DNA of 64,000 nucleotides from contig CAWHBU010000004.1 of assembly GCA_963827685.1 (NCBI GenBank), positions 768,001 through 832,000 of the forward strand, written 5' to 3'. Shown in pieces: positions 1,823 to 50,968 of the stretch (positions are counted from its first letter, which is position 1; each line of letters starts with the position of its first letter). The stretch is from an uncultured delta proteobacterium (GTDB lineage Bacteria; Desulfobacterota; BSN033; UBA1163). The translations under genes were made by a program, and so were the position numbers. The notes under the pieces are model-generated. The model searched no databases and was not told the origin of the DNA. It saw only the letters and a list, made by a program, of their open reading frames with translations.

Positions 1823-2275
1823 ATGAAGAGATTTGCCAGTCCCGACCAGTTAAATTTCTTCGATCTACTCAGAGACCTTCGTCCGAAAAATAGCGGATTC
1901 TCATCATTTAATATAGACCTACTCCTACGCGAGACCATCAGCCAGGCGATCAAGGAATCGCCGCTTTCACGGTTTCAAATTGCTGCTCACATGAGCGAGA
2001 TTCTGGGCCTCGAGGTCAGCAAGTCGATGATCGATTCCTGGACGGCCGAGAGCCGCGAAGGGATCAACCGCTTTCCAGCCTGCTATTTACCGGCCTTTTG
2101 TCAGACCGTGAATTCGCTCGAACCACTGAAAGTGCTGGCGGATCTCCTTGGATGCGTCGTCGTCGAGGGAGAGGAGGCACTTCTCATTGAGCTTTCGAAG
2201 GTTGGGGTCGAGAAGGAGAAACTCTTTAAGAGAGAGAAGGCCATTAAAACGATTCTTGGGGGAATGAGAAAATGA
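1823..2275 (+). CDS. Mu-like early DNA-binding/regulatory protein
   Basis: LSRFQIAAHMSEILG..VSKSMIDSWTAESRE motif, seen upstream of transposases in Mu-like phages; ATGA overlap with transposase. Confidence 0.65.
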   Translation: MKRFASPDQLNFFDLLRDLRPKNSGFSSFNIDLLLRETISQAIKESPLSRFQIAAHMSEILGLEVSKSMIDSWTAESREGINRFPACYLPAFCQTVNSLEPLKVLADLLGCVVVEGEEALLIELSKVGVEKEKLFKREKAIKTILGGMRK

Positions 2276-4629
2276 GGCGACTCGTTGATACGGAGGAGGC
2301 GGCGAGGATGTTGGGGATCACATCCAGGGCGGTTCGGAAATGGTTCGCCGCCGGAAAGGTCGAGGGCAAATTTGAACCGGGCAAAAGGGCGGGCAGATCT
2401 GGAATGAAATTGTTCGTATGGATCGAGGACGACCAGAGGGCAGTCGGCAGTAGGCAGAAGGCAGATAAGAAAGAGAGAGATCATACCCGGGTGAATCGGG
2501 GGGAACCGGGACGAGAGATTGTCACGCCCCTGTTTAATGGCGTGCCAATCGATACGGAGACGCGGGGATCCGGAGACTCGGAGATAACTTTACATGGTTC
2601 TACGATGTTAACTAAAGACCAAAAAAACGCCAATTTTGTCAAGTTAACTGAAACCCTGCCGTCCGGGCATCAATTCCTGGTCTCACCCCACCAGGTCCCT
2701 CCTTCCCCGGACGGCGGGGTGCCTACACTCGAAACCGAGCTTCGGCACCCAGGGGCGCTTTCTCCGTCGGCAATAAATGCCGACGCTACAGAAAATGCCC
2801 TGGATTCCGGCCCCCGGATCGATGTCCGGGGCGAGCTCCGCCGGAATGACAAAGCGGATCGTATTGCCAACCTGCGGTTCGCCCTGATCCAAGCATTTAA
2901 CGAAGAGATCGCCAAAAACCACCGGCCAAAAGTAGAGACCATTCGCAATTTTCTATCATTATATAATAGCGGGGTTCTTTTGTCCGACATCCACAAAGAA
3001 CTCGGCGAGATCTCCCGCGCCACATTATATAACTGGCGCTCAGCGGCCGCGCCGCAGGATCTCACGCCCCAATATGGCGGGGCGGGGCAATCGAAGGTAA
3101 CCGAACACGAGAAAAATATCGTCCTCACACTGCTATTGCATCAAAACCGTCTGAAAGTCTCTTACGGCATCACACTCGCCAAAGAATACCTCACCAAAAA
3201 GAGAATAGACTCGCCTTCAAGCCCTTCCACGCTGCGAAGATTCATCGATCAATTCAAAAAAGAGCATTACGACATCTGGATCCTGCGGCGCGAGGGCGAG
3301 AAGGCGCTCAAAGATAAAGTCACTCCCTATGCTGAGCGCGACTGGCGCTTGCTCGAGGTGGGCGACGGCCTGGTCGCCGACGGCCATCGGCTGAATTTTC
3401 AAGTGATCAATCCCAACACAGGCAAGCCTTGCAGGGCGGCGCTGGTGCTTTTCTGGGACTGGAGAAGTTCTTATCCGCTCGGATGGGAGCTCATGCTCGA
3501 GGAATCGACCCAATGTGTCGCCTCAGCCCTCAGAAACGCCATCGTCGCCCTGGGTAAAATTCCGAAATGGGTCTATCTCGACAACGGCAAAGCATTCAAG
3601 GCAAAGGTCTTCACGCAGGACATCGATTTTGAGGATTCGGAACTCCCCGGCATGTTTGCCCGCCTCAACATCAATTACCATTTCGCTCAACCCTACAATG
3701 CCCAATCGAAACCCATCGAAAGAATTTTTGGGATCCTGAACGAACAACTCGAGCGTCTGGTCCCATCCTATACCGGCGCCTCTATTAATGATAAGCCCGC
3801 CTGGACGAAGCGAAACGAAAAATATGCCCGGTCCCTTCACAATCCCGTTATTCCCACAATCCCGGAGACGAATGGCCTGATTTTTGCCTGGCGCGATCGC
3901 TATGCAGAGAGATCCTCCAGGGGAAGGGACGGTCTCCGGCCTATCGATATATATAATGATGGGAAAGGCCCTGGCGTTGACCCGGCCGAATTGATCTATC
4001 TAATGATGGACCGCGAGATCAAACAGGTCCACCGAAACGGCGTCACCTGGCTTGGCTGGCACTGGTTTGATGAGGCCATGTACGGCCTCAAAGATAAAGT
4101 CGTCATCCGCTATTCTCTTTCCGATCTCTCACAGATATACGTCTTTCACAAAAATGAATTCCTCTGCGCCGCAAAACCCATCGAACTGGTGCATCCGATG
4201 GCCTCCGAAAGCGAGAACCCCAAAGACATGGAGGCCGTGAAGGACGTCATCCGCCTCCAGAAGAAGGTCAAAAACACTACCCGCAAACTCTGCGATCTCC
4301 TCGAGACGAAACAGGCGAGCCAGATCGATTGGAGCAGAACGAGAAACTCCGAGATCTCCGAGACGATAGAAAAGATCGAGGCGGAGAAGAAACCGAAAGT
4401 TGTGAGATTTTCGCCTTTTGCCGACGCTCCGGAGTCTGACCCGGAGATAGTCGAACATGATGACGCAGAGCAAGATCACCTGCCACAAAGACGACGGTTT
4501 AAATACGATTTTGAAAAATATGAATGGCTGATGGTTCAGAAATCCATATCCGAAGACGACCAAAAGTGGATCGACCAGTACCGAGCCACCTCTTCGGCAT
4601 TCAAGGATGTCATCGGAGGTAAACAATGA
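2272..4629 (+). CDS. Mu-like DDE transposase A
   Basis: N-terminal HTH; catalytic motifs VADGH, YLDNGKAF, AQSKPIER; Mu transposase C-terminal region (GVTW...VVIRYSLSDLSQIYVF). Confidence 0.93.
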   Translation: MRRLVDTEEAARMLGITSRAVRKWFAAGKVEGKFEPGKRAGRSGMKLFVWIEDDQRAVGSRQKADKKERDHTRVNRGEPGREIVTPLFNGVPIDTETRGSGDSEITLHGSTMLTKDQKNANFVKLTETLPSGHQFLVSPHQVPPSPDGGVPTLETELRHPGALSPSAINADATENALDSGPRIDVRGELRRNDKADRIANLRFALIQAFNEEIAKNHRPKVETIRNFLSLYNSGVLLSDIHKELGEISRATLYNWRSAAAPQDLTPQYGGAGQSKVTEHEKNIVLTLLLHQNRLKVSYGITLAKEYLTKKRIDSPSSPSTLRRFIDQFKKEHYDIWILRREGEKALKDKVTPYAERDWRLLEVGDGLVADGHRLNFQVINPNTGKPCRAALVLFWDWRSSYPLGWELMLEESTQCVASALRNAIVALGKIPKWVYLDNGKAFKAKVFTQDIDFEDSELPGMFARLNINYHFAQPYNAQSKPIERIFGILNEQLERLVPSYTGASINDKPAWTKRNEKYARSLHNPVIPTIPETNGLIFAWRDRYAERSSRGRDGLRPIDIYNDGKGPGVDPAELIYLMMDREIKQVHRNGVTWLGWHWFDEAMYGLKDKVVIRYSLSDLSQIYVFHKNEFLCAAKPIELVHPMASESENPKDMEAVKDVIRLQKKVKNTTRKLCDLLETKQASQIDWSRTRNSEISETIEKIEAEKKPKVVRFSPFADAPESDPEIVEHDDAEQDHLPQRRRFKYDFEKYEWLMVQKSISEDDQKWIDQYRATSSAFKDVIGGKQ

Positions 4630-12860: not shown

Positions 12861-12917
12861 AAAACCCGACTTGTGTTCGTCGGCAGTAAATGCCGACGCT
12901 ACAGGTCGGGTTTTTTT
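12861..12917 (+). terminator. intrinsic terminator immediately upstream of the endolysin RBS
   Basis: AAAACCCGACTTGT...ACAGGTCGGG-TTTTTTT stem with inner GTCGGCA/TGCCGAC hairpin. Confidence 0.7.
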
Positions 12918-12928
12918 ATGGGGTCGAA

Positions 12929-13438
12929 ATGATCATCACTCACTGGTCGCACATCATGATTCACCATTCGGCAAGTCCGGACAGTCGCACGTTCGGTTGG
13001 CAAGAGATTAGGCGATACCACATGTCGTGGCGCATTGATGGAACAAGCGTCAGCAAGGAAGAATACGATCGGAGACTCTTGGCGAAACAGGGAACGCATT
13101 TTGAGGCTCCGGACCGAGATATCGCCTATCACTTCGGGATTGAGTTGGTCAACGACCGTTATGAAATTTTCGTTGGCCGGGATCTGGACCAGGATGGGGC
13201 GCATTGTATCGGGATGAATCAGAAGGCCATCGGGATCTGTTTCATTGGAAATTTTGACGGGACCCGGGTCCCGGCAGATCAGTGGACAGTGGGCGTCTTT
13301 TTTGTGAGAAGCCTCTGCCGGATCCTATTGATTCCGATCACGTGCGTTATTCCGCATCGGGATTACGCCCAAAAGACCTGTCCGGGCAAATTATTCGATA
13401 TGGAACTTTTCAGAAGAGATCTTTTGAGGATCACATGA
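12929..13438 (+). CDS. endolysin, N-acetylmuramoyl-L-alanine amidase (Amidase_2)
   Basis: HIMIHHSA, IAYHF, GAHC.G.N...IGICFIGNFD, PHRD...KTCPG. Confidence 0.9.
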   Translation: MIITHWSHIMIHHSASPDSRTFGWQEIRRYHMSWRIDGTSVSKEEYDRRLLAKQGTHFEAPDRDIAYHFGIELVNDRYEIFVGRDLDQDGAHCIGMNQKAIGICFIGNFDGTRVPADQWTVGVFFVRSLCRILLIPITCVIPHRDYAQKTCPGKLFDMELFRRDLLRIT

Positions 13439-13462
13439 CCGAACCGATTTTCAAGGAGTAAG

Positions 13463-13792
13463 ATGTACATGCTGAAACTTATCTCAGACAACATGGACCT
13501 CATCGCCCTCGGCGCTTTTATTTTGGCGCTTCTCTTTGTTTTTTTCGGATTTGTGATCTATCTGTCCTTATCTTCCAGACTAAAGGAATACTTCGTCGAT
13601 GATGGAGGAAAGCTTTCTATGGGCAGGCTGATTTGTTTTTTGAGTATCTTCTTCTATATCATCAGCGCCGCCTATGGTCTACTTTCAAAGGGAATATTTC
13701 CCGACATCCCAACGAATTTATCGGTACTCGTTGGTGGACTTTACGGATTGAATAAATTCAGCCCCACCGTTCCATTTCAGGGGCCAAAATAA
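13463..13792 (+). CDS. putative holin
   Basis: 2-3 TM helices, G.LSMGRL motif; follows endolysin. Confidence 0.65.
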   Translation: MYMLKLISDNMDLIALGAFILALLFVFFGFVIYLSLSSRLKEYFVDDGGKLSMGRLICFLSIFFYIISAAYGLLSKGIFPDIPTNLSVLVGGLYGLNKFSPTVPFQGPK

Positions 13793-15935: not shown

Positions 15936-17615
15936 GTGAAACGAGTTTTGAGTGAAAAGAAGTTCGATCTTGAGATTGAGGCGATCCGGTCGCTGATCCA
16001 ATCGGTTGCCAAACCTTTCCCCGTTGACAAGAAACTCCAGGAGGAAAGGATCGAGCGCGGCTCGCACGATCTTGAATTTTTCGGCCGCACCTACTTCCCG
16101 CATTACATCGAGGCCCCCTGCTCGGCATTTCACCGTTACGTTTGCGAACGATATACGGCGATGGTCCTTCGGGCGGTCGAGACCGGAGAAGGAGACAAGG
16201 AGGCCGATGCGGCTCCTCGAGGAAACGCCAAATCGACCTGGGCCGATCTCGTCTTCGCCCTCTGGTGCGCCGCCTTCGGATATCGCCGTTTTATCGTCAT
16301 CGTCAGCGATACCGCTTCGCAGGCCGAGGATTTCATCCAATTCATCAAGGCGGAGCTCGAGGTGAACGAGCGGCTCGCCCAGGACTTTCCGAAACTCTGC
16401 GGCCAGGGGCCTATCTGGCGGGCCGATACGATCATCACCGCAAACCGGGTCAAAATCCGAGGCGTGGGCGCTGGGCAAAAACTAAGAGGCATGCGCCACG
16501 GATCCACACGGCCGGATCTCGTGATCGGGGATGATTTGGAGAATGACGAGGCCGTTGAATCTCCGGATCAGAGGAAGAAAATGGAGAGGTGGTTTTTCAA
16601 GGCACTGATGAAGATCGGCCAGAAGGATACGGTCTTCCTGATCCTCGGGACCATCCTTCATTACGACAGCCTTCTCAGTGATCTCCTGAGACGACCCGGA
16701 TGGAAAGGTCGCAAGTTCAAAGCCGTCATAAAATATTCCAGCTCAAAACTATGGGAAAAATGGGAAGAGATCTTCGTCGATATTTCCATCGGAAAAGAAC
16801 AAGCCGAAGAAGCGGCCGATGCCTTTTTCGAGGCCAACAAAGCGGAAATGCTTGCTGACACCGAGGTCCTCTGGCCCGAGGTCGAGGATTACTATTATCT
16901 GATGAAAATGCGGATCTCAGACGGGCCTGCCTACTTTGAATCGGAGAAACAAAACGAGCCGATCAATCCGGAAGATGCAATCTTCCTGGGAGAATGGTTT
17001 GTCGACTGGGAAGAAGGAGACGTGGATCTCACCGGCATCGCGCACGCGGGCGCATGCGATCCGTCTCTCGGAAAACGGAACAAACGTGGGGATTCATCAG
17101 CAATACTCGGCGGGCGGATGAAGGACAACGTTCTGTATCTCGACGTTGCGGATATCGAGCGCCGGCAGCCAGACAAAATTATGACCGATATTCTGGCGCA
17201 TCACACCCGTGATCCCTTCGATAAATTCAGGATCGAGATCGTGCAATTTCAGGAATTCTTTGCGCGGCAATTTGAAAAGGTCGCGCATGATACCGGCCGG
17301 ACGATGAACATCGACAACTACATTCCCAACGCCGACAAAGATTTGAGGATCATCCGGCTCCAGCCCTGGATCAAGAATGGCTGGATCCGCTTCAAGCCCA
17401 ACATGAGGGAGCTCAAACGGCACCTGATCTATTACCGGCCAAAAAATAGGGGCGGCCCAGATGATGGCCCCGATGCATTGGAGATGCTCCTCGGACTTTG
17501 TGAGGCGGGTTTGATGCCTGCCGCGTCTGTTTCGAGTGAGACGGGAAAGGGCGATTATCACGCGGAGCGGAGGCGGGGCATCATGGAGAGGTTTGGATTT
17601 AGAAGGGCAGCATGA
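15936..17615 (+). CDS. terL: terminase large subunit
   Basis: APRGNAKST Walker A, RPDLVIGDDLEND, ACDPSLG, DDGPDALE nuclease motifs. Confidence 0.93.
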   Translation: MKRVLSEKKFDLEIEAIRSLIQSVAKPFPVDKKLQEERIERGSHDLEFFGRTYFPHYIEAPCSAFHRYVCERYTAMVLRAVETGEGDKEADAAPRGNAKSTWADLVFALWCAAFGYRRFIVIVSDTASQAEDFIQFIKAELEVNERLAQDFPKLCGQGPIWRADTIITANRVKIRGVGAGQKLRGMRHGSTRPDLVIGDDLENDEAVESPDQRKKMERWFFKALMKIGQKDTVFLILGTILHYDSLLSDLLRRPGWKGRKFKAVIKYSSSKLWEKWEEIFVDISIGKEQAEEAADAFFEANKAEMLADTEVLWPEVEDYYYLMKMRISDGPAYFESEKQNEPINPEDAIFLGEWFVDWEEGDVDLTGIAHAGACDPSLGKRNKRGDSSAILGGRMKDNVLYLDVADIERRQPDKIMTDILAHHTRDPFDKFRIEIVQFQEFFARQFEKVAHDTGRTMNIDNYIPNADKDLRIIRLQPWIKNGWIRFKPNMRELKRHLIYYRPKNRGGPDDGPDALEMLLGLCEAGLMPAASVSSETGKGDYHAERRRGIMERFGFRRAA

Positions 17616-17728: not shown

Positions 17729-17743
17729 GTGACCGGAGTAACC

Positions 17744-19207
17744 ATGAGGATTAAAGACAAATTAATTGATGCGTTTTTTGGAAGTACCATTGAATCGAAG
17801 GTGAAGGAACGCATTAAGGCGGCGTCGATCCTCGATGCGCCGACGGTTGAGGACCTTAAGTGGAGGCGCCTGACCACCAACGCCAACCGCGACCTTCTGC
17901 CCATAACGCAGGACCGGATGATCGAGATCGCCTACTGGCTTCACGAGACGAATCCACTCGCGGGCTGGCTGATCGATATCACCACGGCTTTCATCATGGC
18001 CGAGGAGTTGCCGTATGAATCAAAGGATGAGGAAATCAAGGCCGTGCTCGATGGTTTCTGGAACGATCCAGTCAACCGGATGGACCTTTACTTTCCGAAG
18101 CACGTCTCCGAACTCCACATCTTCGGCGAGCTCTGCATGCCCGCCTTTGTTGCAAAGCAAACGGGCCGGGTGAGGCTCGGCTACGTAGATCCAGCGCAGA
18201 TCGATATCGTCGCGACCGACCCCGAGAATGTGAAGATGCAGATCGGCGTCATCACCAAGCCCTGGACCGGCCTGGTCGGGGGCTTTCAGATCAATCAGGA
18301 TCCCAAAAAATATCGGACGGTCCTGCCGGAGGAAGCCGAATACGTTCTTTCGCCCACAGCGAAGCAGCTCCGCAATCAATTCACGGATGGCGATTGTTTT
18401 TATTTCTCGATCAATAACGTGACGAATTCTCCGAGAGGCCGATCGTCTTTGCTTTCCGTCGCCGATTGGCTCGACGCCTATGAGCAATATCTTTTCGATT
18501 TCGCGGATAAGTGGCCGCAGTTCAACTCCTTCGTGTGGGACATCTTGGTGCAAGGCGGCAACGAGGACGACATCAAAAAACAGGTCGCGAACTTCAGCAA
18601 AAAATCCGGGTCATCCTTTGGCCATAATGAGAAAGTGACACTGTCGCCTTTGGCGCCCGAGATGAAAGCAATGGATGCGGAGACTGGAGCCAGACTTTTT
18701 CGCAATCATATCCTCGGCCCGTTCGGATATCCGGAGCACTGGTATGGCGGGGGAGGCGACGTGAATCGGGCGACGGCCTCCGAGATGGATATGCCGGCAA
18801 TCAAGATGCTCTCATACAAGCAAAATTACGTAAAATTTGCGCTGATGGAAATCCTCGGATACCAGGTCAGGCAGGCGAGGCAGGCTGGTTATCTCCGGGC
18901 GCCGGGGGATGCGACTTTCTCAGTGACCACGCCGGTCATGCAGGCAAAGGATGTTTCCAAATTCGGAGCGATGGTCCAGCAGGTGGCGGCAGCCCTGTTG
19001 ACGGCCGAGAGCCAAGAGTGGATCGATAAGGAGACTGCCCGCAAACTCTTCGCCGCAATGGTCGGATTCCTCGGAGTGGATATCGATCTCGATGAGGTGA
19101 AGAAGGCCCTGGCGGAAGGCGGGGGAGACCAAAGTGCGATCCAGGATTACCTGAAGAAAAAACCGGTCCTGCCTCAACCCGCGCAAGGGGTGAGGAGAGT
19201 GAAGTAA
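17744..19207 (+). CDS. portal protein
   Basis: Follows TerL; ~490 aa; FGELC, RGRSSL, GYPEHWYGG..DVNRATA. Confidence 0.82.
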   Translation: MRIKDKLIDAFFGSTIESKVKERIKAASILDAPTVEDLKWRRLTTNANRDLLPITQDRMIEIAYWLHETNPLAGWLIDITTAFIMAEELPYESKDEEIKAVLDGFWNDPVNRMDLYFPKHVSELHIFGELCMPAFVAKQTGRVRLGYVDPAQIDIVATDPENVKMQIGVITKPWTGLVGGFQINQDPKKYRTVLPEEAEYVLSPTAKQLRNQFTDGDCFYFSINNVTNSPRGRSSLLSVADWLDAYEQYLFDFADKWPQFNSFVWDILVQGGNEDDIKKQVANFSKKSGSSFGHNEKVTLSPLAPEMKAMDAETGARLFRNHILGPFGYPEHWYGGGGDVNRATASEMDMPAIKMLSYKQNYVKFALMEILGYQVRQARQAGYLRAPGDATFSVTTPVMQAKDVSKFGAMVQQVAAALLTAESQEWIDKETARKLFAAMVGFLGVDIDLDEVKKALAEGGGDQSAIQDYLKKKPVLPQPAQGVRRVK

Positions 19208-19671: not shown

Positions 19672-19680
19672 GGAGGCAGG

Positions 19681-20499
19681 ATGCCGTCTCTTAAGGAAAT
19701 CGAGTTTGCACGAAAGATGAAGGCGTTGCTCCAGGAGGCGGATAACCTTCAGGATGACGCGGTAAAGAGGGTGCTCGCCATCCTCAGCCAGGCGCGAAGG
19801 GAAGTGGCAGCCGACGTGGCATCGACCGACTGGGAGGCTTACCGCCTCAAGGGACTAAAGGAAGCAATCGAGAGGGCGATGACCGATTTTGCTGACAAAT
19901 ACAGTATTGATCTCAGGAGCGCCCAGGCCGACCTTTTCGACCTCGGCATTGCCAGGGCGAATATCCCTCTCGGCGTTGCCACTGCCATGTCGATGGTCCC
20001 ATCCATCAATATCAAGGCGCTGGAGATCGCCCAGAACTACTCGTCGGATCTTATCAGCAACCTTACTGAAGACGCGATCAAGAAAATCAATCAAGAACTG
20101 ACGATGGGGATCCTTGGCGTGAAGACGCCCTTTGAGGTGATGACGGCCATCGGGAAAAATCTTGAGGATCCTTCGGTTTTTAAATCGATCGCAAGCCGGG
20201 CAGAGGTGATCACCAGGACAGAGACCGGAAGAATTTTCGAGATGGCCACTCAATCGAGGCTTGAGGACGCACAGAGGGTTGTGCCGGACATGAAAAAACA
20301 ATGGATGTCGTCGCCGATGAGACCGACGGCCAGGCCCGAGCATCACACGCCAGAGGTTGATGGACAGATCCGCGATGTGGATGAGACCTTTGACGTGGCC
20401 GGAGAGCAGTTGATGTTCCCGGGCGATCCGGCGGGATCCCCGTGGAACACAATCAACTGCGGCTGACGGAGTGTGCCGTATATGTCCAGTTGGGCATGA
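19681..20499 (+). CDS. MuF/gp30-SPP1 gp7 family minor head protein; candidate selenoprotein (TGA 20464-20466 read as Sec)
   Basis: RAEVITRTET, KKQW, R.EH...DGQ....ETF, FPGDP.G...NTINCG-TGA-RSVPYMSSWA-stop. The family normally ends in N-C-x-C. Hairpin follows the TGA. Confidence 0.8.
20482..20497 (+). promoter_or_regulatory. candidate bacterial SECIS hairpin
   Basis: ATGTCC-AGTT-GGGCAT (6 bp with one G-U); loop GU at +23/+24 after UGA. Confidence 0.5.
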
Positions 20500-20500
20500 A

Positions 20501-20628
20501 GGGTTATTGGGTTCATTGGGTTCGTTGAGTCATTGAGTTTTCGGGTTCATTGAGTTCTTTGGGTTATCGGGTCCATTGGCCTGCCGCAGGCCTGCGGCAG
20601 GCAAGCAACTCAAAGAACACAAGTAACC
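20501..20628. repeat. 9-mer palindromic array with two CCTGC.GCAGG units at centre (20580-20601)
   Basis: Read directly from sequence. Confidence 0.85.
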
Positions 20629-20655: not shown

Positions 20656-21222
20656 ATGAAGAAGAGATTAATTGAGGTTATAGCGTGCGGACTCGTAGTT
20701 GCGGCACTTGCCGTCGCGACGTACTACCGGAACGAGATCTGGGGAAGCGAGATGAGCCTGTGGCGCGACGCCGCGAAAAAATCTCCTTATAAGGATCGGC
20801 CTGCGATCAATCTTGCGACGGCGTTGGCCCAGCAGGGGAGATTTGAAGAGGCCAAACATGGGATTCAGAGATACCTTGAGATCAATCCGCAATCCATCGA
20901 GGCCCAGAACAATCTCGGAGCGATTCTGAGCCTCCAGGGAAAATACGACGAGGCCCTTTACCATATTTTTGAGGCCCTGCGAATCGATCCAAAAAACCCA
21001 ATCGCCCACAATAACGCGGGCGCGGTTCTATGCAAGCAAGGCCAGTACCAGGAGGCCCTCATCCATTTTAAGGAGGCGCTCAAAAGCAAGTCCGATTTTG
21101 AGGACGCGCGGAAGAACTACGAGACCATCTCGGCGGCGATAAAGAAGAAGGTTGAGGCTAAAGTTGAGGTTAAGGCTGAGCCAAAGGCTAACGCCAAGGC
21201 TAAGGTTGAGTCTAAAGAATAA
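20656..21222 (+). CDS. membrane-anchored TPR protein
   Basis: N-terminal TM, TYYRNEIWGSEMSLWRDAAKKSP, three TPRs (NNLGAIL..QGKYDEA); C-terminus encoded by AAGGTTGAGGCT repeats. Confidence 0.85.
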   Translation: MKKRLIEVIACGLVVAALAVATYYRNEIWGSEMSLWRDAAKKSPYKDRPAINLATALAQQGRFEEAKHGIQRYLEINPQSIEAQNNLGAILSLQGKYDEALYHIFEALRIDPKNPIAHNNAGAVLCKQGQYQEALIHFKEALKSKSDFEDARKNYETISAAIKKKVEAKVEVKAEPKANAKAKVESKE

Positions 21223-21573: not shown

Positions 21574-24207
21574 ATGGATCCCAAAGAGGCTCAAAAGGCC
21601 AGAGCGAGCAAATGGAATATCGCCATTAAGGATGGCGGCCATGTGACGAAACCTGGGCAGTGGTCGAGCGTTCCGGATGAGGAATTCCTCGATCCGGTCA
21701 ATTATCGATATCCGTGTCCTAACGCAGATCAAACCAGGGCGGCAGCCGCCTACTGGGGCCAGGCCGACAACCAGGCGCAGTACTCGAGCGAAGAGAAAGC
21801 CATCATTAATAGAAGGCTCGATGAGATGGAGAAAAAATTTAATATTGGAGATCGTCAATCGGGTGCCATGAGCTTTTCCGAGACTCGCCGCGCTCTCTGC
21901 CAGGCGCTTTCGGCAAAATTTCCGAACATGCCCGGCGATATCGTTGATATCTACAACGATTATTGCATCTTCTCGGACGGCGAGAACAACCTTTTCGAGA
22001 TCCCATATGGTGTCGATGCAAATGGGACCATTACGTTCGGCGACAAGGTAAAGGTGAGAAAAGAAGTAACCTATTTGAAAGTGTCATCTGCCTCTCATCT
22101 CTCAAAGGCCATCGGTGCCACGACGGATCCGAATTACGGATACCAATGGGACGTTCAGATCGTCGAGGCGGGCCCAGACCGTCAAGGCACGGCGATCTAT
22201 CCCTACGAGGTCCTGAAAGCGGCGATTCCTCTGTACGAAGGGGCCAAAGTTTTTGCCCTCTCTCAGGGTCAACATGATAATCCCGATAATCCATTCGGAA
22301 AATCAGTCCGCGATCTCGTGGGGTGGATCTCGGGTGTGAGACCTAACGACAAAGGGTTGGAAGGAAAACTCAATATTTTAAAAACCGCATCCTGGCTTCG
22401 GGACATGATAGTCGATTCCTGGAATCGTGGGAAAAAAGACCTGGTCGGCCTTTCCCATGACATCCTGGCCAGGGTGGCATCGGGTCCGGCGCCGCGAAAG
22501 GCAGAAAAGATCGTCCGGGTCGATTCGGTTGATGTTGTCTATGATCCCATCGCAGGTGGGAAATTCATAAGAATGGCTGCGGCCGCGGCTAAGGCGGCGA
22601 GTCAAAAGGAGGCTACCATGTTCAAGCAGATGTTGGCCGCACTTAAAAAGCAGCGGCCGGATTTGAAGGATCAGATCGAAGCGTTGGAGGCAAAGGGCGA
22701 CGCCGTCACCGAGGACGAGATCTCCACTCTCCTGGCACAGGTGACGGGAGCAAGCACAAGCAGAAGCGAGTTTGAAAAATATCTCGAAAAACTCACCGCA
22801 TCCGTGAGCGAGATAACCAAGCAGCAGGCCCAGAAAATGATTGACGAGGCCACGAAGAAATTCGAGGATGCCCAGAAACTCCTGGCCTGCGCGCAGTTGC
22901 TGACGGATGAGCTCGAAGCGTCGAAGCTGCCGGATGTGATGAAAGCGCGGATCAGGAAACAGTTCTCCGCCAGGGTCTTCGAAGTCGAAGACCTCAAGGC
23001 CGCGATTAAGGATGAAAAAGAAATTGCGGATAAGTTGACCGGAAGCGGGACAGTGAGCGGAGTCGGCGGCCTTCGCATGGAGGTCGGAGAAGGCGAACCC
23101 GAAAAGCTCCAGGCCGCTCTCGATAAACTCATGGGAGCGGAGGTGGACGAGAAATTTAAAACCGTGCCGGCGTTCCATTCTCTCAGGGCAGCGTACACGC
23201 GGCTGACCGGAGACCCGGAGGTCCGCGGGATTCCCTCGCGCGAAGCGATCAAGCTCGGCGAGGCCTTCATGAACATGATGAGGCTGCCGGCTGCCTACAG
23301 CACAAGTTCTTTCTCGTTCGTGCTGGGCAATTCGATGTATCGGCGTCTGATCAAAGAATACAATGCGGTGAACTACCGCGAGGACGCGTTGATCTCCTTC
23401 TACCGTAACGCCGAGAATTTCAAAACCCTTGAGATCATCCAGGTCGGCTATTTCGGAGACGTGCCCGATGTAAACCCGGAAACGGCCGATTATGTCGAAA
23501 TTACCATGCCGACGGATATCGAGGCGACCTACGCCATCAACCAGAAAGGATGGATTTTGACGGTTACGCGGCGGGTGGTGCTTAACGATGACCTCAAGAC
23601 CGTGACCCAGCTCATTTCCAAGATGGGCCGTGCGCACAGAAGGACCCATGCCAAGCGCGCATGGAACAAAATTATTTCGAACGCCACCTACAAGGGCGAC
23701 AGCAAGGCCCTGTTCCATACGGATCACGGAAACCTCGGGGCTGTGGCGCTTACCCTTGACGCGACCGGCGTGGCCACTGTGACGAACCGGTTAAAGGCCA
23801 TGTACGCCCAGGCCGAGCAAGATTCTGGGGAGAAACTGGCACTCATTCCAAGATGTCTCTGGGCCCCGAGAGATTGTCTTGAAATCGCCCAGGGACTCAA
23901 TGCGCCCTGGCCGGGGGCAGCTACGCCCAACCCCCACGCCTACAGGTTCGGTCAGAACAACGAGAACATCATCTGCAACCCGCTCTTCACGGACGTCAAC
24001 GATTGGGGCCTGATTGCCGATCCTGGAGATGCGGAACTTCTCGAGGCGGCCTACCTCAACGGGCAACGGGAACCTGAATTTTTCGTCGCCGATAACCCGG
24101 TGATGGGCCAGATGTTCGTGGCGGATAAGATCCAATACAAGAGCCGCCATGAGTACGAATTTGAGATCGCGGACTATCGCGGGTTCGATAAATCGGTATG
24201 CGCATAA
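21574..24207 (+). CDS. fused N-terminal domain/prohead protease/scaffold/major capsid protein (HK97 fold, Mu gpT-like)
   Basis: N-terminal FLDPVNYRYP domain; protease-like GLSHD...SVDVVYDPIAGG; coiled-coil scaffold; capsid motifs LFHTDHGN, YLNGQREPE, IADYRG. Confidence 0.85.
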   Translation: MDPKEAQKARASKWNIAIKDGGHVTKPGQWSSVPDEEFLDPVNYRYPCPNADQTRAAAAYWGQADNQAQYSSEEKAIINRRLDEMEKKFNIGDRQSGAMSFSETRRALCQALSAKFPNMPGDIVDIYNDYCIFSDGENNLFEIPYGVDANGTITFGDKVKVRKEVTYLKVSSASHLSKAIGATTDPNYGYQWDVQIVEAGPDRQGTAIYPYEVLKAAIPLYEGAKVFALSQGQHDNPDNPFGKSVRDLVGWISGVRPNDKGLEGKLNILKTASWLRDMIVDSWNRGKKDLVGLSHDILARVASGPAPRKAEKIVRVDSVDVVYDPIAGGKFIRMAAAAAKAASQKEATMFKQMLAALKKQRPDLKDQIEALEAKGDAVTEDEISTLLAQVTGASTSRSEFEKYLEKLTASVSEITKQQAQKMIDEATKKFEDAQKLLACAQLLTDELEASKLPDVMKARIRKQFSARVFEVEDLKAAIKDEKEIADKLTGSGTVSGVGGLRMEVGEGEPEKLQAALDKLMGAEVDEKFKTVPAFHSLRAAYTRLTGDPEVRGIPSREAIKLGEAFMNMMRLPAAYSTSSFSFVLGNSMYRRLIKEYNAVNYREDALISFYRNAENFKTLEIIQVGYFGDVPDVNPETADYVEITMPTDIEATYAINQKGWILTVTRRVVLNDDLKTVTQLISKMGRAHRRTHAKRAWNKIISNATYKGDSKALFHTDHGNLGAVALTLDATGVATVTNRLKAMYAQAEQDSGEKLALIPRCLWAPRDCLEIAQGLNAPWPGAATPNPHAYRFGQNNENIICNPLFTDVNDWGLIADPGDAELLEAAYLNGQREPEFFVADNPVMGQMFVADKIQYKSRHEYEFEIADYRGFDKSVCA

Positions 24208-49805: not shown

Positions 49806-50417
49806 TTACAGGGTTTCATAAAACGATTTTTTCAAAAACTTAAAGGATGCAACAAATTTATCGAAGATCTCAAAAGCGGATAGATCGTAAGGCCCATCCA
49901 TGGGTCTCCATTGGGTAATATAAAAACCTACAATCCGGCCACCCCGTTTACCGAAGATGACTTGAGCTCTGACCTTCTCTTTTTTCACTGGGTCCTTTCC
50001 CTCCACCAGCACTGCCAGTCCTTCTCCACCAACGACCTGTACTTTTTTTCTCTCCAAAATTTGGAACTGGAGGATGGCGTTGAAAAGGAATCGCTTGAAA
50101 AACTCCCTTTCCCTCCCCTCGAACGATGCGGCTGTACAGCCGAAAGGCTCCTCATCATAAGCAAACGTGGTTAAAGAGGGGAATGATCCAGGGTCTGATC
50201 TCATAAATCCAAAATTGATATCATTCTCTCCTGCTTCTACCCTTAGTAATTTCCAATCCGGGGGAGGGGGCAGGAACTCAAACTCATCTTCCCAAATGAC
50301 CATTCCCTGTGGAGTCAATCTGTAAGGAACCTTCTTAGAGTTTTCCATTGTGGCACATCCGGAAAACCAAGCCACTACCAACACTGAGCATAGAATCGTC
50401 AACAACTTTCCTTTCAT
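49806..50417 (-). CDS. lipoprotein
   Basis: Signal with FSGC lipobox; overlaps upstream stop. Confidence 0.75.
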   Translation of the reverse strand: MKGKLLTILCSVLVVAWFSGCATMENSKKVPYRLTPQGMVIWEDEFEFLPPPPDWKLLRVEAGENDINFGFMRSDPGSFPSLTTFAYDEEPFGCTAASFEGREREFFKRFLFNAILQFQILERKKVQVVGGEGLAVLVEGKDPVKKEKVRAQVIFGKRGGRIVGFYITQWRPMDGPYDLSAFEIFDKFVASFKFLKKSFYETL

Positions 50418-50968
50418 GGCTTTCCTCCTTCCTGGTTCAATGCTTTGAGAAAGAGGAGAATATCCTTGAAGTCAGGTGAACCATCCCTGACATAACGGAT
50501 GATTCCAGTTTTATCGATAATCACCGTTCGCCTTCCAAAGATGGGCTTTGCTTCAGGCGAAGCATCGAAATAGAAACCTAAAAAAGAAGTGATGTTCGAA
50601 AGGAGGGGGAAGGTTATACCTAAACTATTCCCCCAATATTTTAACGTTGTGACATCATCCCGGCTGACGCCCACGACCCGGGCGTTGAAGCGGTCATAGA
50701 GGGAAAGGTTCCTCTGATGACCCTCCATTTCGCCCGTTCAGACAGGGGTGAAGGCGGCTGGAAAGAACGTGATGATCAGATGGTACTTTCCATAGTACTC
50801 GTCGGCATAATTAATCAACCGGTCCTGCGTGGATGGCAGGGTAAAATTGAGTGTCTCTCGACCGATTAACTCTATTCTTTTTGCAGCTTCCACATGGGAG
50901 AGAGGAAGAAGGAATAACAAAAGTAAAGGCAGGGGAATCCATTTGTGGTAAAGAATCTTTCTCCTCAT
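50414..50968 (-). CDS. exported peroxiredoxin/AhpC-like selenoprotein (Sec at TGA 50738-50740)
   Basis: Two ORFs in the same frame joined by TGA: FFPAAFTPV-U-TGEMEG (Prx PxxxTxxC motif), then VVGVSRD, FPLLS, RRTVIIDKTGIIRY. Confidence 0.85.

Follow-up and report, generated by a model that had tools for sequence, protein, structure and literature searches.

A putative phage-encoded selenoprotein: a MuF-type minor head protein gene with a UGA codon at its conserved second cysteine

A 64,000-nucleotide stretch of DNA from an uncultured delta proteobacterium (hereafter the window; GenBank assembly GCA_963827685.1, contig CAWHBU010000004.1, positions 768,001 to 832,000 of the forward strand) contains, within a Mu-like transposable prophage, a plus-strand gene (19681-20499) for a MuF-type minor head protein. 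From a comparison with its relatives, we conclude, with a probability of roughly 0.85, that the second cysteine of the N-C-x-C motif found near the C-terminus of such proteins is replaced here by selenocysteine (Sec), encoded by an in-frame UGA. The gene most likely belongs to a clade of phage proteins that, as judged from their sequences, have repeatedly exchanged Cys and Sec at this position. An earlier note on the window had proposed that a UGA standing at the conserved terminal Cys of MuF is read as Sec by the host machinery, and the comparative evidence set out below supports that proposal.

The open reading frame (ORF) begins at an ATG at 19681, whose Met is also the start Met of the homologs and which is preceded by a directly legible ribosome-binding site, GGAGG (19673-19677, plus strand). 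From 19681 to 20463 the ORF reads ...PGDPAGSPWNTINCG, after which comes the in-frame TGA (20464-20466, residue 262), the proposed Sec codon, at a position where homologs have TGC, TGT or TGA. Ten further codons follow in the same frame (20467-20496; CGG AGT GTG CCG TAT ATG TCC AGT TGG GCA), specifying the tail RSVPYMSSWA, which would be translated only on readthrough of the UGA; a second TGA (20497-20499), the predicted true stop, closes the gene. Direct reading thus bears out this arrangement as the earlier note had described it. Under translation table 11 the product has 261 residues, and with the UGA taken as Sec it has 272. The ten-residue tail matches those of homologs that have Cys at the position (CRSVPYMASWQ and CYTVPYMSSWA, for instance), one of which (L022) also ends alike, in ...SSWA followed by TGA.

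Inclusion of the tail improves the fit of the protein to known families. Without the tail (261 residues), the match to PHROG 2468 ('head morphogenesis') scores 86.8 bits (E 3.4e-24), a value that rises to 94.4 bits (E 1.7e-26) when the TGA is read as Cys and the tail is added; likewise, the score against Pfam PF04233 (Phage_Mu_F) goes from 21.8 to 25.9 bits (E 1.8e-5), both values being below the 29.6-bit cut-off of that family. In both cases, the profile alignment then extends beyond the TGA. PF04233 is present in 47 of the 62 homologs recovered by a search of 5.8 billion proteins. NCBIfam has no model matching the MuF protein, and its closest match in a cultured phage, Microcystis phage Mae-JY22, is only 36% identical.

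The nearest protein homologs (P0002-P0048; 47 sequences, 36-90% identity) fall into two kinds. In fifteen of them, the two closest (90% and 83% identity) included, the sequence stops precisely at ...N-T-I-[NR]-C-[GS], and the others run on through C-x-[ST]-x-P-[YWF]-x-x-x-W to a short variable end, as illustrated by P0004 (71% identity), which reads ...NTINCGCRSVPYMASWQ. We therefore looked at the codon itself in 168 related loci, 8 of them from genomes, 80 from metagenome contigs (the best 80 of 444) and 80 from IMG/VR (the best 80 of 403), the query for the last two collections being an alignment of truncated forms. A motif script located the codon in 150 loci, which together with the window represent 118 distinct sequences. 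The second-Cys codon of N-C-x-C is TGC in 62 of these, TGT in 30 and TGA in 26, the TGA share (26/118) being biased towards relatives of truncated forms because the query was itself truncated and each of these two collections contributed just its 80 best loci. Eighteen loci lie outside the motif pattern: one has TGA (L124), 14 have Cys and three are cut ahead of the motif. With L124 and L181 added to the 26, TGA is found at the codon in 28 cases overall; neither TAA nor TAG occurs there in any of the related loci, and the second Cys is invariant among all the Cys forms. Alternation of Cys codons and TGA in this column, followed by a conserved tail, was the pattern that the earlier note had named as informative, and it is seen in many homologs, the tail being of the form S-x-P-[YFW]...W.

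The exchange appears to have taken place many times. A maximum-likelihood tree of 113 rows, built from the residues upstream of the codon only, requires 15 changes between Cys and UGA, at least six of which are forced by branches with a Shimodaira-Hasegawa-like approximate likelihood-ratio support (SH-aLRT) of at least 95; shuffled labels require about 23. In this tree the window groups, with a support of 99, with the UGA gene L017, which is 60% identical and has the tail RSAPYMASWA.

This sister gene also bears on the idea that the prophage is decaying and that its TGA arose lately by nonsense mutation or stems from a faulty assembly. Such an origin would demand little, since a single base change turns TGC or TGT into TGA and prophages often decay. 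However, not only does L017 carry the TGA as well, but the relatives at 90% and 83% identity, which were found in other data sets, terminate there too, and the cluster of the 90%-identical homolog comprises five sequences of at least 90% identity from several sources, all of which stop at this codon. The TGA is therefore no singleton nonsense mutation or sequencing error, an objection that had been foreseen when the proposal was made. In addition, the remainder of the head and tail module of the prophage is intact, and DNA contigs from two public runs agree in carrying 20464-20466 unchanged, although these contigs are weak as independent support because they stem from a single study and the window may itself have been derived from them. 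RNA data sets containing the sequence were not found. Taken together, these observations make a mutation or an error extremely improbable.

A different possibility is that the TGA is a genuine stop, about one fifth of the family members ending after N-C-G, and that the sequence downstream is either a conserved untranslated element, such as a regulatory hairpin, or a decaying relic. If the stop codon were freely chosen, some TAA or TAG would be expected, whereas TGA is found in 28 of 28 cases, and the position that it occupies is filled by an invariant second Cys in all the Cys forms. Furthermore, what follows the TGA looks like coding sequence. The tails of the TGA genes, which are in frame in every one, take three forms, x-S-[ILV]-P-Y-H-P-[RS]-W-[DE]-E..., [ST]-H-V-L-T-x-x-[DE]-W-E... 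and R-S-x-P-Y-M-x-S-W-A (the last being that of the window and L017), and they reach the same kinds of C-terminus as the tails of the Cys genes. Over the four codons that follow the first tail codon and lie outside the hairpin described below, the mean column entropy at the first, second and third codon positions is 0.64, 0.44 and 1.46 in 18 UGA genes; in the seven UGA genes of a second clade it is 0.68, 0.51 and 1.33. The synonymous variety is apparent in the 18 tails, where Pro is encoded by CCG, CCT, CCC or CCA and Ile by ATA, ATC or ATT. This third-position variation shows in-frame selection at the protein level after the TGA. Finally, a variant contig from a public run, about 87% alike, keeps the TGA, and both of its changes beyond it (20469 G>A and 20472 T>C) are synonymous. 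As a separate observation on these C-termini, ...A-A stands directly ahead of the stop in much of the family, irrespective of whether the form is Cys or UGA (P0010-P0045 and related loci).

Bacterial selenocysteine insertion sequence (SECIS) elements are stem-loops located shortly 3' of the UGA, with a G early in the apical loop. A SECIS-like hairpin is present in the window at 20481-20498 (plus strand). It comprises seven pairs, two of them G-U, formed by the arms AUGUCC (20482-20487) and GGGCAU (20492-20497) and an outer G-U pair (20481/20498), and its 3' arm contains the second stop codon. The apical loop, AGUU (20488-20491), spans +25 to +28 counted from the U of the UGA; its G and U are at +26 and +27, i.e. 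23 and 24 nucleotides (nt) past the UGA, in agreement with what the earlier note had reported of this hairpin.

The position and the loop type of the hairpin are conserved in the UGA relatives. Indeed, a hairpin forms in every one of the 26 TGA sequences, from about +17 to +35 relative to the U of the UGA, and the A-G-[GU]-U loop and the two C-G pairs that close it are invariant, at the same position, in 18 of 18 aligned UGA relatives. In the alignment of these 18 sequences, 90.5% of the cells pair, both sides have changed in four of the seven pairs, as expected of compensatory changes, and the covariation score is 0.227 versus 0.092 in shuffles, none of 500 of which reached it. The double changes come mostly from the lineage of the window and L017, in which H-P-R-W-D-E has given way to M-S-S-W-A-stop with the helix kept. 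Wobble positions within the helix are frozen: among the genes with an H-P-x-W tail, the 5' arm plus loop sequence CAU-CCC-AG[GU] is shared by all 16 TGA genes and by 7 of the 21 Cys genes (Fisher p = 2e-5, without correction for kinship). The Cys genes L153/L154 and L019/L099, which are sisters of UGA genes, retain the exact hairpin sequence, as expected for recent conversions. The loops of the second clade are of the GGACU type.

Several observations nevertheless weigh against Sec insertion. Taken alone, the hairpin of the window is unremarkable (z = -1.37; 17 of 200 shuffles fold equally well), and it is only because of the family comparison that the observation exceeds chance. In the second clade (seven sequences), pairing is no better than in shuffles (72/500). 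We had considered hairpin stability as a means of discriminating UGA genes from Cys genes and rejected it: the contrast over all sequences is large (p = 7e-8) because distant Cys homologs have other tails, and it is lost once only homologs whose tail residues agree are compared (in H-P-x-W genes, -10.1 kcal/mol for TGA, n = 16, versus -9.3 kcal/mol for Cys, n = 21; p = 0.20). Judged by its stability, the hairpin is therefore not specific to TGA genes; it is largely a by-product of the tail codons and does not by itself mark a UGA gene, whereas the exact 5' arm and loop sequence does differ in frequency between the two groups, as given above. An Rfam scan of 20400-20620 with E values up to 10 returned chance-level matches only and no SECIS family. 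The length of the open frame after the TGA was likewise dropped as evidence, since the open stretches of frames +1 and +2 are similar in length to that of frame 0, and frame length alone therefore proves nothing. To these points must be added the sampling bias in the TGA share mentioned above, and the fact that statistics computed over related sequences overstate their independence.

Three of these points, namely the hairpin shared with Cys genes, the Rfam result and the similar openness of the other frames, count in favour of a genuine stop; set against the in-frame selection, the shared C-termini and the exclusive use of TGA, they leave this explanation improbable. TGA was never seen in the subfamilies whose tails lack the hairpin. 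We read these results as indicating that the H-P-x-W-[DE] codons form the hairpin unaided, that the UGA arises only in such tails, and that its presence then fixes the sequence of the arm and loop.

The comparative data discussed so far support readthrough rather than the identity of the inserted residue, and the UGA might be read by a route that does not involve Sec, i.e. by a near-cognate Trp or Cys tRNA, by a suppressor tRNA or through an altered phage code, and the full-length product would then contain no selenium. Recoding of stop codons is indeed known in phages. Nevertheless, the UGA aligns with Cys codons only, never with Trp or Gly codons. Moreover, the 26 TGA genes terminate at TGA (11), TAA (10) or TAG (4), the remaining one being open past 39 codons, and neighbouring phage ORFs also terminate at TGA under table 11. 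In these genomes, then, TGA has not been reassigned: this one codon apart, it functions as a normal stop. In the gene that stays open, L164 (from 3754), the first 39 codons past the UGA include no stop, and the frame goes on into an extended C-terminal region (…KGEAWQHIKDSQLGSNPGGKF…); the gene may encode a fusion of MuF in which the Sec lies internally.

The host is equipped for Sec decoding. Its genome (G000; 5.2 Mb, 14 contigs) contains a tRNA-Sec gene (selC, 81.7 bits), selA (629.9 bits) a few kb away from it, selB (357 bits) and selD (384 bits), the last with an in-frame TGA of its own; all four score above curated cut-offs, so that every sel gene on which the proposal depended has been found. 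At least eight or nine host genes have an in-frame TGA, namely selD, two AhpC/Prx genes, three Fdh-alpha-like genes (a gene boundary possibly accounting for one of these cases) and three MvhD genes; C6:489003-489929, C3:1045980-1046348, C4:8536-10536 and C4:127410-127778 are among the in-frame-TGA genes of this genome. The window itself provides an example on the minus strand (50414-50968), a peroxiredoxin-like gene with an AhpC-TSA match and a single in-frame TGA (50738-50740) at the peroxidatic position, within F-T-P-V-U. The earlier note had rightly placed this UGA at the catalytic Cys, and the gene indicates that the host decodes UGA as Sec. In the 50 nt that follow the host UGAs, hairpins with short G-rich apical loops are found at about +22 to +30, a range that includes the phage loop.

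Among 401 genomes of the host's phylum, a match to the MuF gene was found only in the host genome and in G212, each match having one in-frame TGA. The G212 gene (L181), which is 35% identical, reads ...IHCG-TGA-DHVPYHAGWA-TGA, and G212 has a tRNA-Sec gene and a selA that is partial at a contig end. Both genomes with the TGA form thus have selA and tRNA-Sec, whereas the Cys forms also occur where selA was not found: of seven genomes with Cys forms, which may be incomplete, selA was found in four and not in three. The numbers are small, but they run in the expected direction, with UGA forms only in Sec-competent hosts and Cys forms in both kinds. Together with the exclusive alignment of the UGA with Cys codons, the use of TGA as an ordinary stop and the placement of the hairpin as in the host's own Sec genes, this distribution makes readthrough by a route other than Sec quite improbable.

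If the UGA does encode Sec, expression of the gene would proceed as follows. During late gene expression, a ribosome arriving at the UGA (20464-20466) would encounter, about 17 nt downstream, the hairpin at 20481-20498, which is part of the coding tail and would act as a bacterial SECIS. The host SelB, presumably bound to this hairpin and carrying Sec-tRNA(Sec), would insert Sec, and with it selenium, and the ribosome would then translate ten further codons up to the real stop, so that the protein would have 272 residues and end in ...N-C-G-U-RSVPYMSSWA. Where Sec insertion failed, a 261-residue product would result that lacks both the second Cys position and the tail. Sec insertion at UGA is an inefficient process. 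This would be tolerable here because one or two copies of a MuF-type protein per capsid suffice, as described for SPP1 gp7 in the passages of PMC5576092 that deal with it.

As regards the role of the residue, the relevant passages of PMC5576092 and PMC5512222 present MuF as a virion-associated domain of unknown function and SPP1 gp7 as a portal-bound protein needed for efficient infection. A possible relationship between the MuF domain and ADP-ribosyltransferases is not stated in those passages of PMC5512222 and PMC5576092 and was dropped. In our two alignments (A1 and A6), H221, E242 and D249 do not vary; C260 likewise never varies in A6 and reaches at least 90% conservation in A1, and position 262 is always occupied by C or U. 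The middle residue of C-x-U is G in 22 of 26 UGA genes. The combination of the invariant H221, E242 and D249 with C260 and C/U 262 would suit a metal site or a redox or catalytic centre, and C-x-U may accordingly be a selenylsulfide-forming or a metal-binding site. The further idea in the earlier note, by which a metal or redox C-G-U motif would couple head assembly or DNA ejection to selenium status, is speculative. Structural searches did not reveal what the Cys pair might do. A search of PDB sequences with the family profile returned nothing relevant, the best match (E 0.31) being an unrelated protein. AlphaFold2 models had a mean predicted local distance difference test score (pLDDT) of 70.1 for the whole protein and 85.0 for the C-terminal domain, and Foldseek found no match to either of them in the PDB at E <= 0.001.

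The MuF gene is embedded in a well-preserved phage module. A Mu-type transposase gene (2272-4629, plus strand; phrog_310, E 1.7e-90) marks the element as transposable. Ahead of the MuF gene are those for the terminase large subunit (15936-17615, plus strand; phrog_38, E 1.2e-101) and for the portal protein (17729-19207, plus strand; phrog_10963, E 1e-42), the latter immediately before the head module to which the MuF gene belongs. The MuF gene is followed by a gene for a protease/major capsid fusion protein (21574-24207, plus strand; PF25209 Phage_capsid_4, E 1.2e-28; phrog_4523 and phrog_133). The gene order of the head module is therefore terminase, portal, MuF, protease/capsid. The element also encodes a tape-measure protein and a tail-fibre J protein. 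The transposase and the head and tail genes together identify a Mu-like transposable prophage that occupies approximately the first 45 kb of the window and is followed by host genes on the minus strand.

Some features of this module are worth recording in their own right. The 877-residue product of 21574-24207 has an N-terminal DUF6582, protease-like PHROG matches in its middle part and the major-capsid domain PF25209 at its C-terminus, and thus appears to be a protease/scaffold-capsid fusion. Between the MuF and protease/capsid genes lies a gene (20656-21222, plus strand) for a TPR-repeat protein with an N-terminal hydrophobic segment; in NCBIfam it most resembles TPR lipoproteins (Tgl and PilW among them), with every score far under the cut-off, and it looks like a cargo gene (moron) inserted in the head module. 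The repeat array that the earlier note had placed at 20501, right after the second stop, does exist but begins at 20507: a tandem array of period 17 and 3.4 copies (20507-20565) is followed by a 25-nt GC-rich palindrome (20578-20602). Different repeats are found right behind the MuF gene elsewhere, namely GGAGGTC units in L042, GCTGATA units in L116 (L116/L117), and GGGGGCA and CAGA units in L181. A scan of the prophage for other selenoprotein genes by TGA readthrough yielded one candidate only (12890-13792, plus strand), in which a single TGA separates 182 residues from about 117 codons in one frame. It was rejected, because the second ORF has its own Met and a hydrophobic sequence, as expected of two adjacent genes.

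The proposed gene resembles bacterial selenoprotein genes that have Cys homologs, such as the SelD, Prx-like, Fdh-alpha and MvhD genes of the host: an in-frame UGA is aligned with the Cys of homologs, a hairpin lies in the coding region a few codons downstream, with its loop at about +22 to +30, and selA, selB, selC and selD are present in the host. It differs from them in that it belongs to a phage and in that its product is, judging by its family, a virion-associated morphogenesis protein without a known enzymatic or redox role. It also differs in the location of the Sec, 11 residues from the C-terminus, as a result of which the SECIS-like hairpin overlaps the real stop codon. The protein shares with MuF and SPP1 gp7 proteins (PF04233, PHROG 2468) similarity over the whole length, a gene located beside the portal gene, and a C-terminal N-C-x-C motif followed by a short tail. 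The described members, phage Mu gpF and SPP1 gp7, have Cys at the second motif position; here, by contrast, it is encoded by UGA.

Cells and a few animal viruses are known to have selenoproteins; among the viral ones, the poxvirus glutathione peroxidase homologs are captured host antioxidant enzymes. In those viruses, as proposed here, the virus borrows the Sec decoding of its host for a gene of its own. However, theirs is a eukaryotic system with a SECIS in the 3' untranslated region, whereas the MuF gene would use a bacterial-type element within the coding region, is part of a phage structural module and has no cellular counterpart. A link between phages and the Sec system has also been drawn for Basilisk-like Bacillus phages, for which the part of PMC6145125 that deals with it reports a predicted tRNA-SeC, to its authors' knowledge the first in bacteriophages. 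That report, in the same part, concerns a tRNA prediction and names no phage selenoprotein gene; the present case is that of a proposed selenoprotein gene relying on the tRNA of its host.

In the full-text literature searched, a scope that leaves supplementary tables and subscription journals outside, no phage-encoded selenoprotein is described, and the papers on viral selenoproteins that came up concern animal viruses only. By term search, the words phage, virus, capsid and morphogenesis are absent from a 2026 review of the prokaryotic selenoproteome (PMC13188914), and the MuF-type family is absent from the main texts of a 2022 preprint on eight new selenoprotein families and of a 2016 survey (PMC5029168), whose supplements, lying outside that search, may list more families.

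If confirmed, the MuF-type proteins would constitute a new selenoprotein family, made up of structural-module proteins instead of redox enzymes, and would show that phages exploit the most specialised recoding system of their hosts. The finding would also point to redox or metal chemistry at the universally conserved and so far unexplained N-C-x-C motif of MuF/gp7 proteins, and would reveal a systematic annotation error, about one third of the nearest database homologs being truncated at this codon. The arrangement of a very short SECIS combined with a stop codon, which occurs here naturally, could serve for C-terminal Sec tagging. More tentatively, and as a possibility that we regard as rather less likely to be true than false, a clade of uncultivated tailed phages of anaerobes would make a Sec-containing virion protein, such that fully functional particles hinge on the Sec decoding and selenium supply of the host and the UGA acts as a host-range or physiological gate. 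The family would be pre-adapted to this, a single TGY-to-TGA change being enough to toggle selenium dependence; tail codons that already form the hairpin, together with this one-step toggle between TGY and TGA, would explain the 15 inferred switches.

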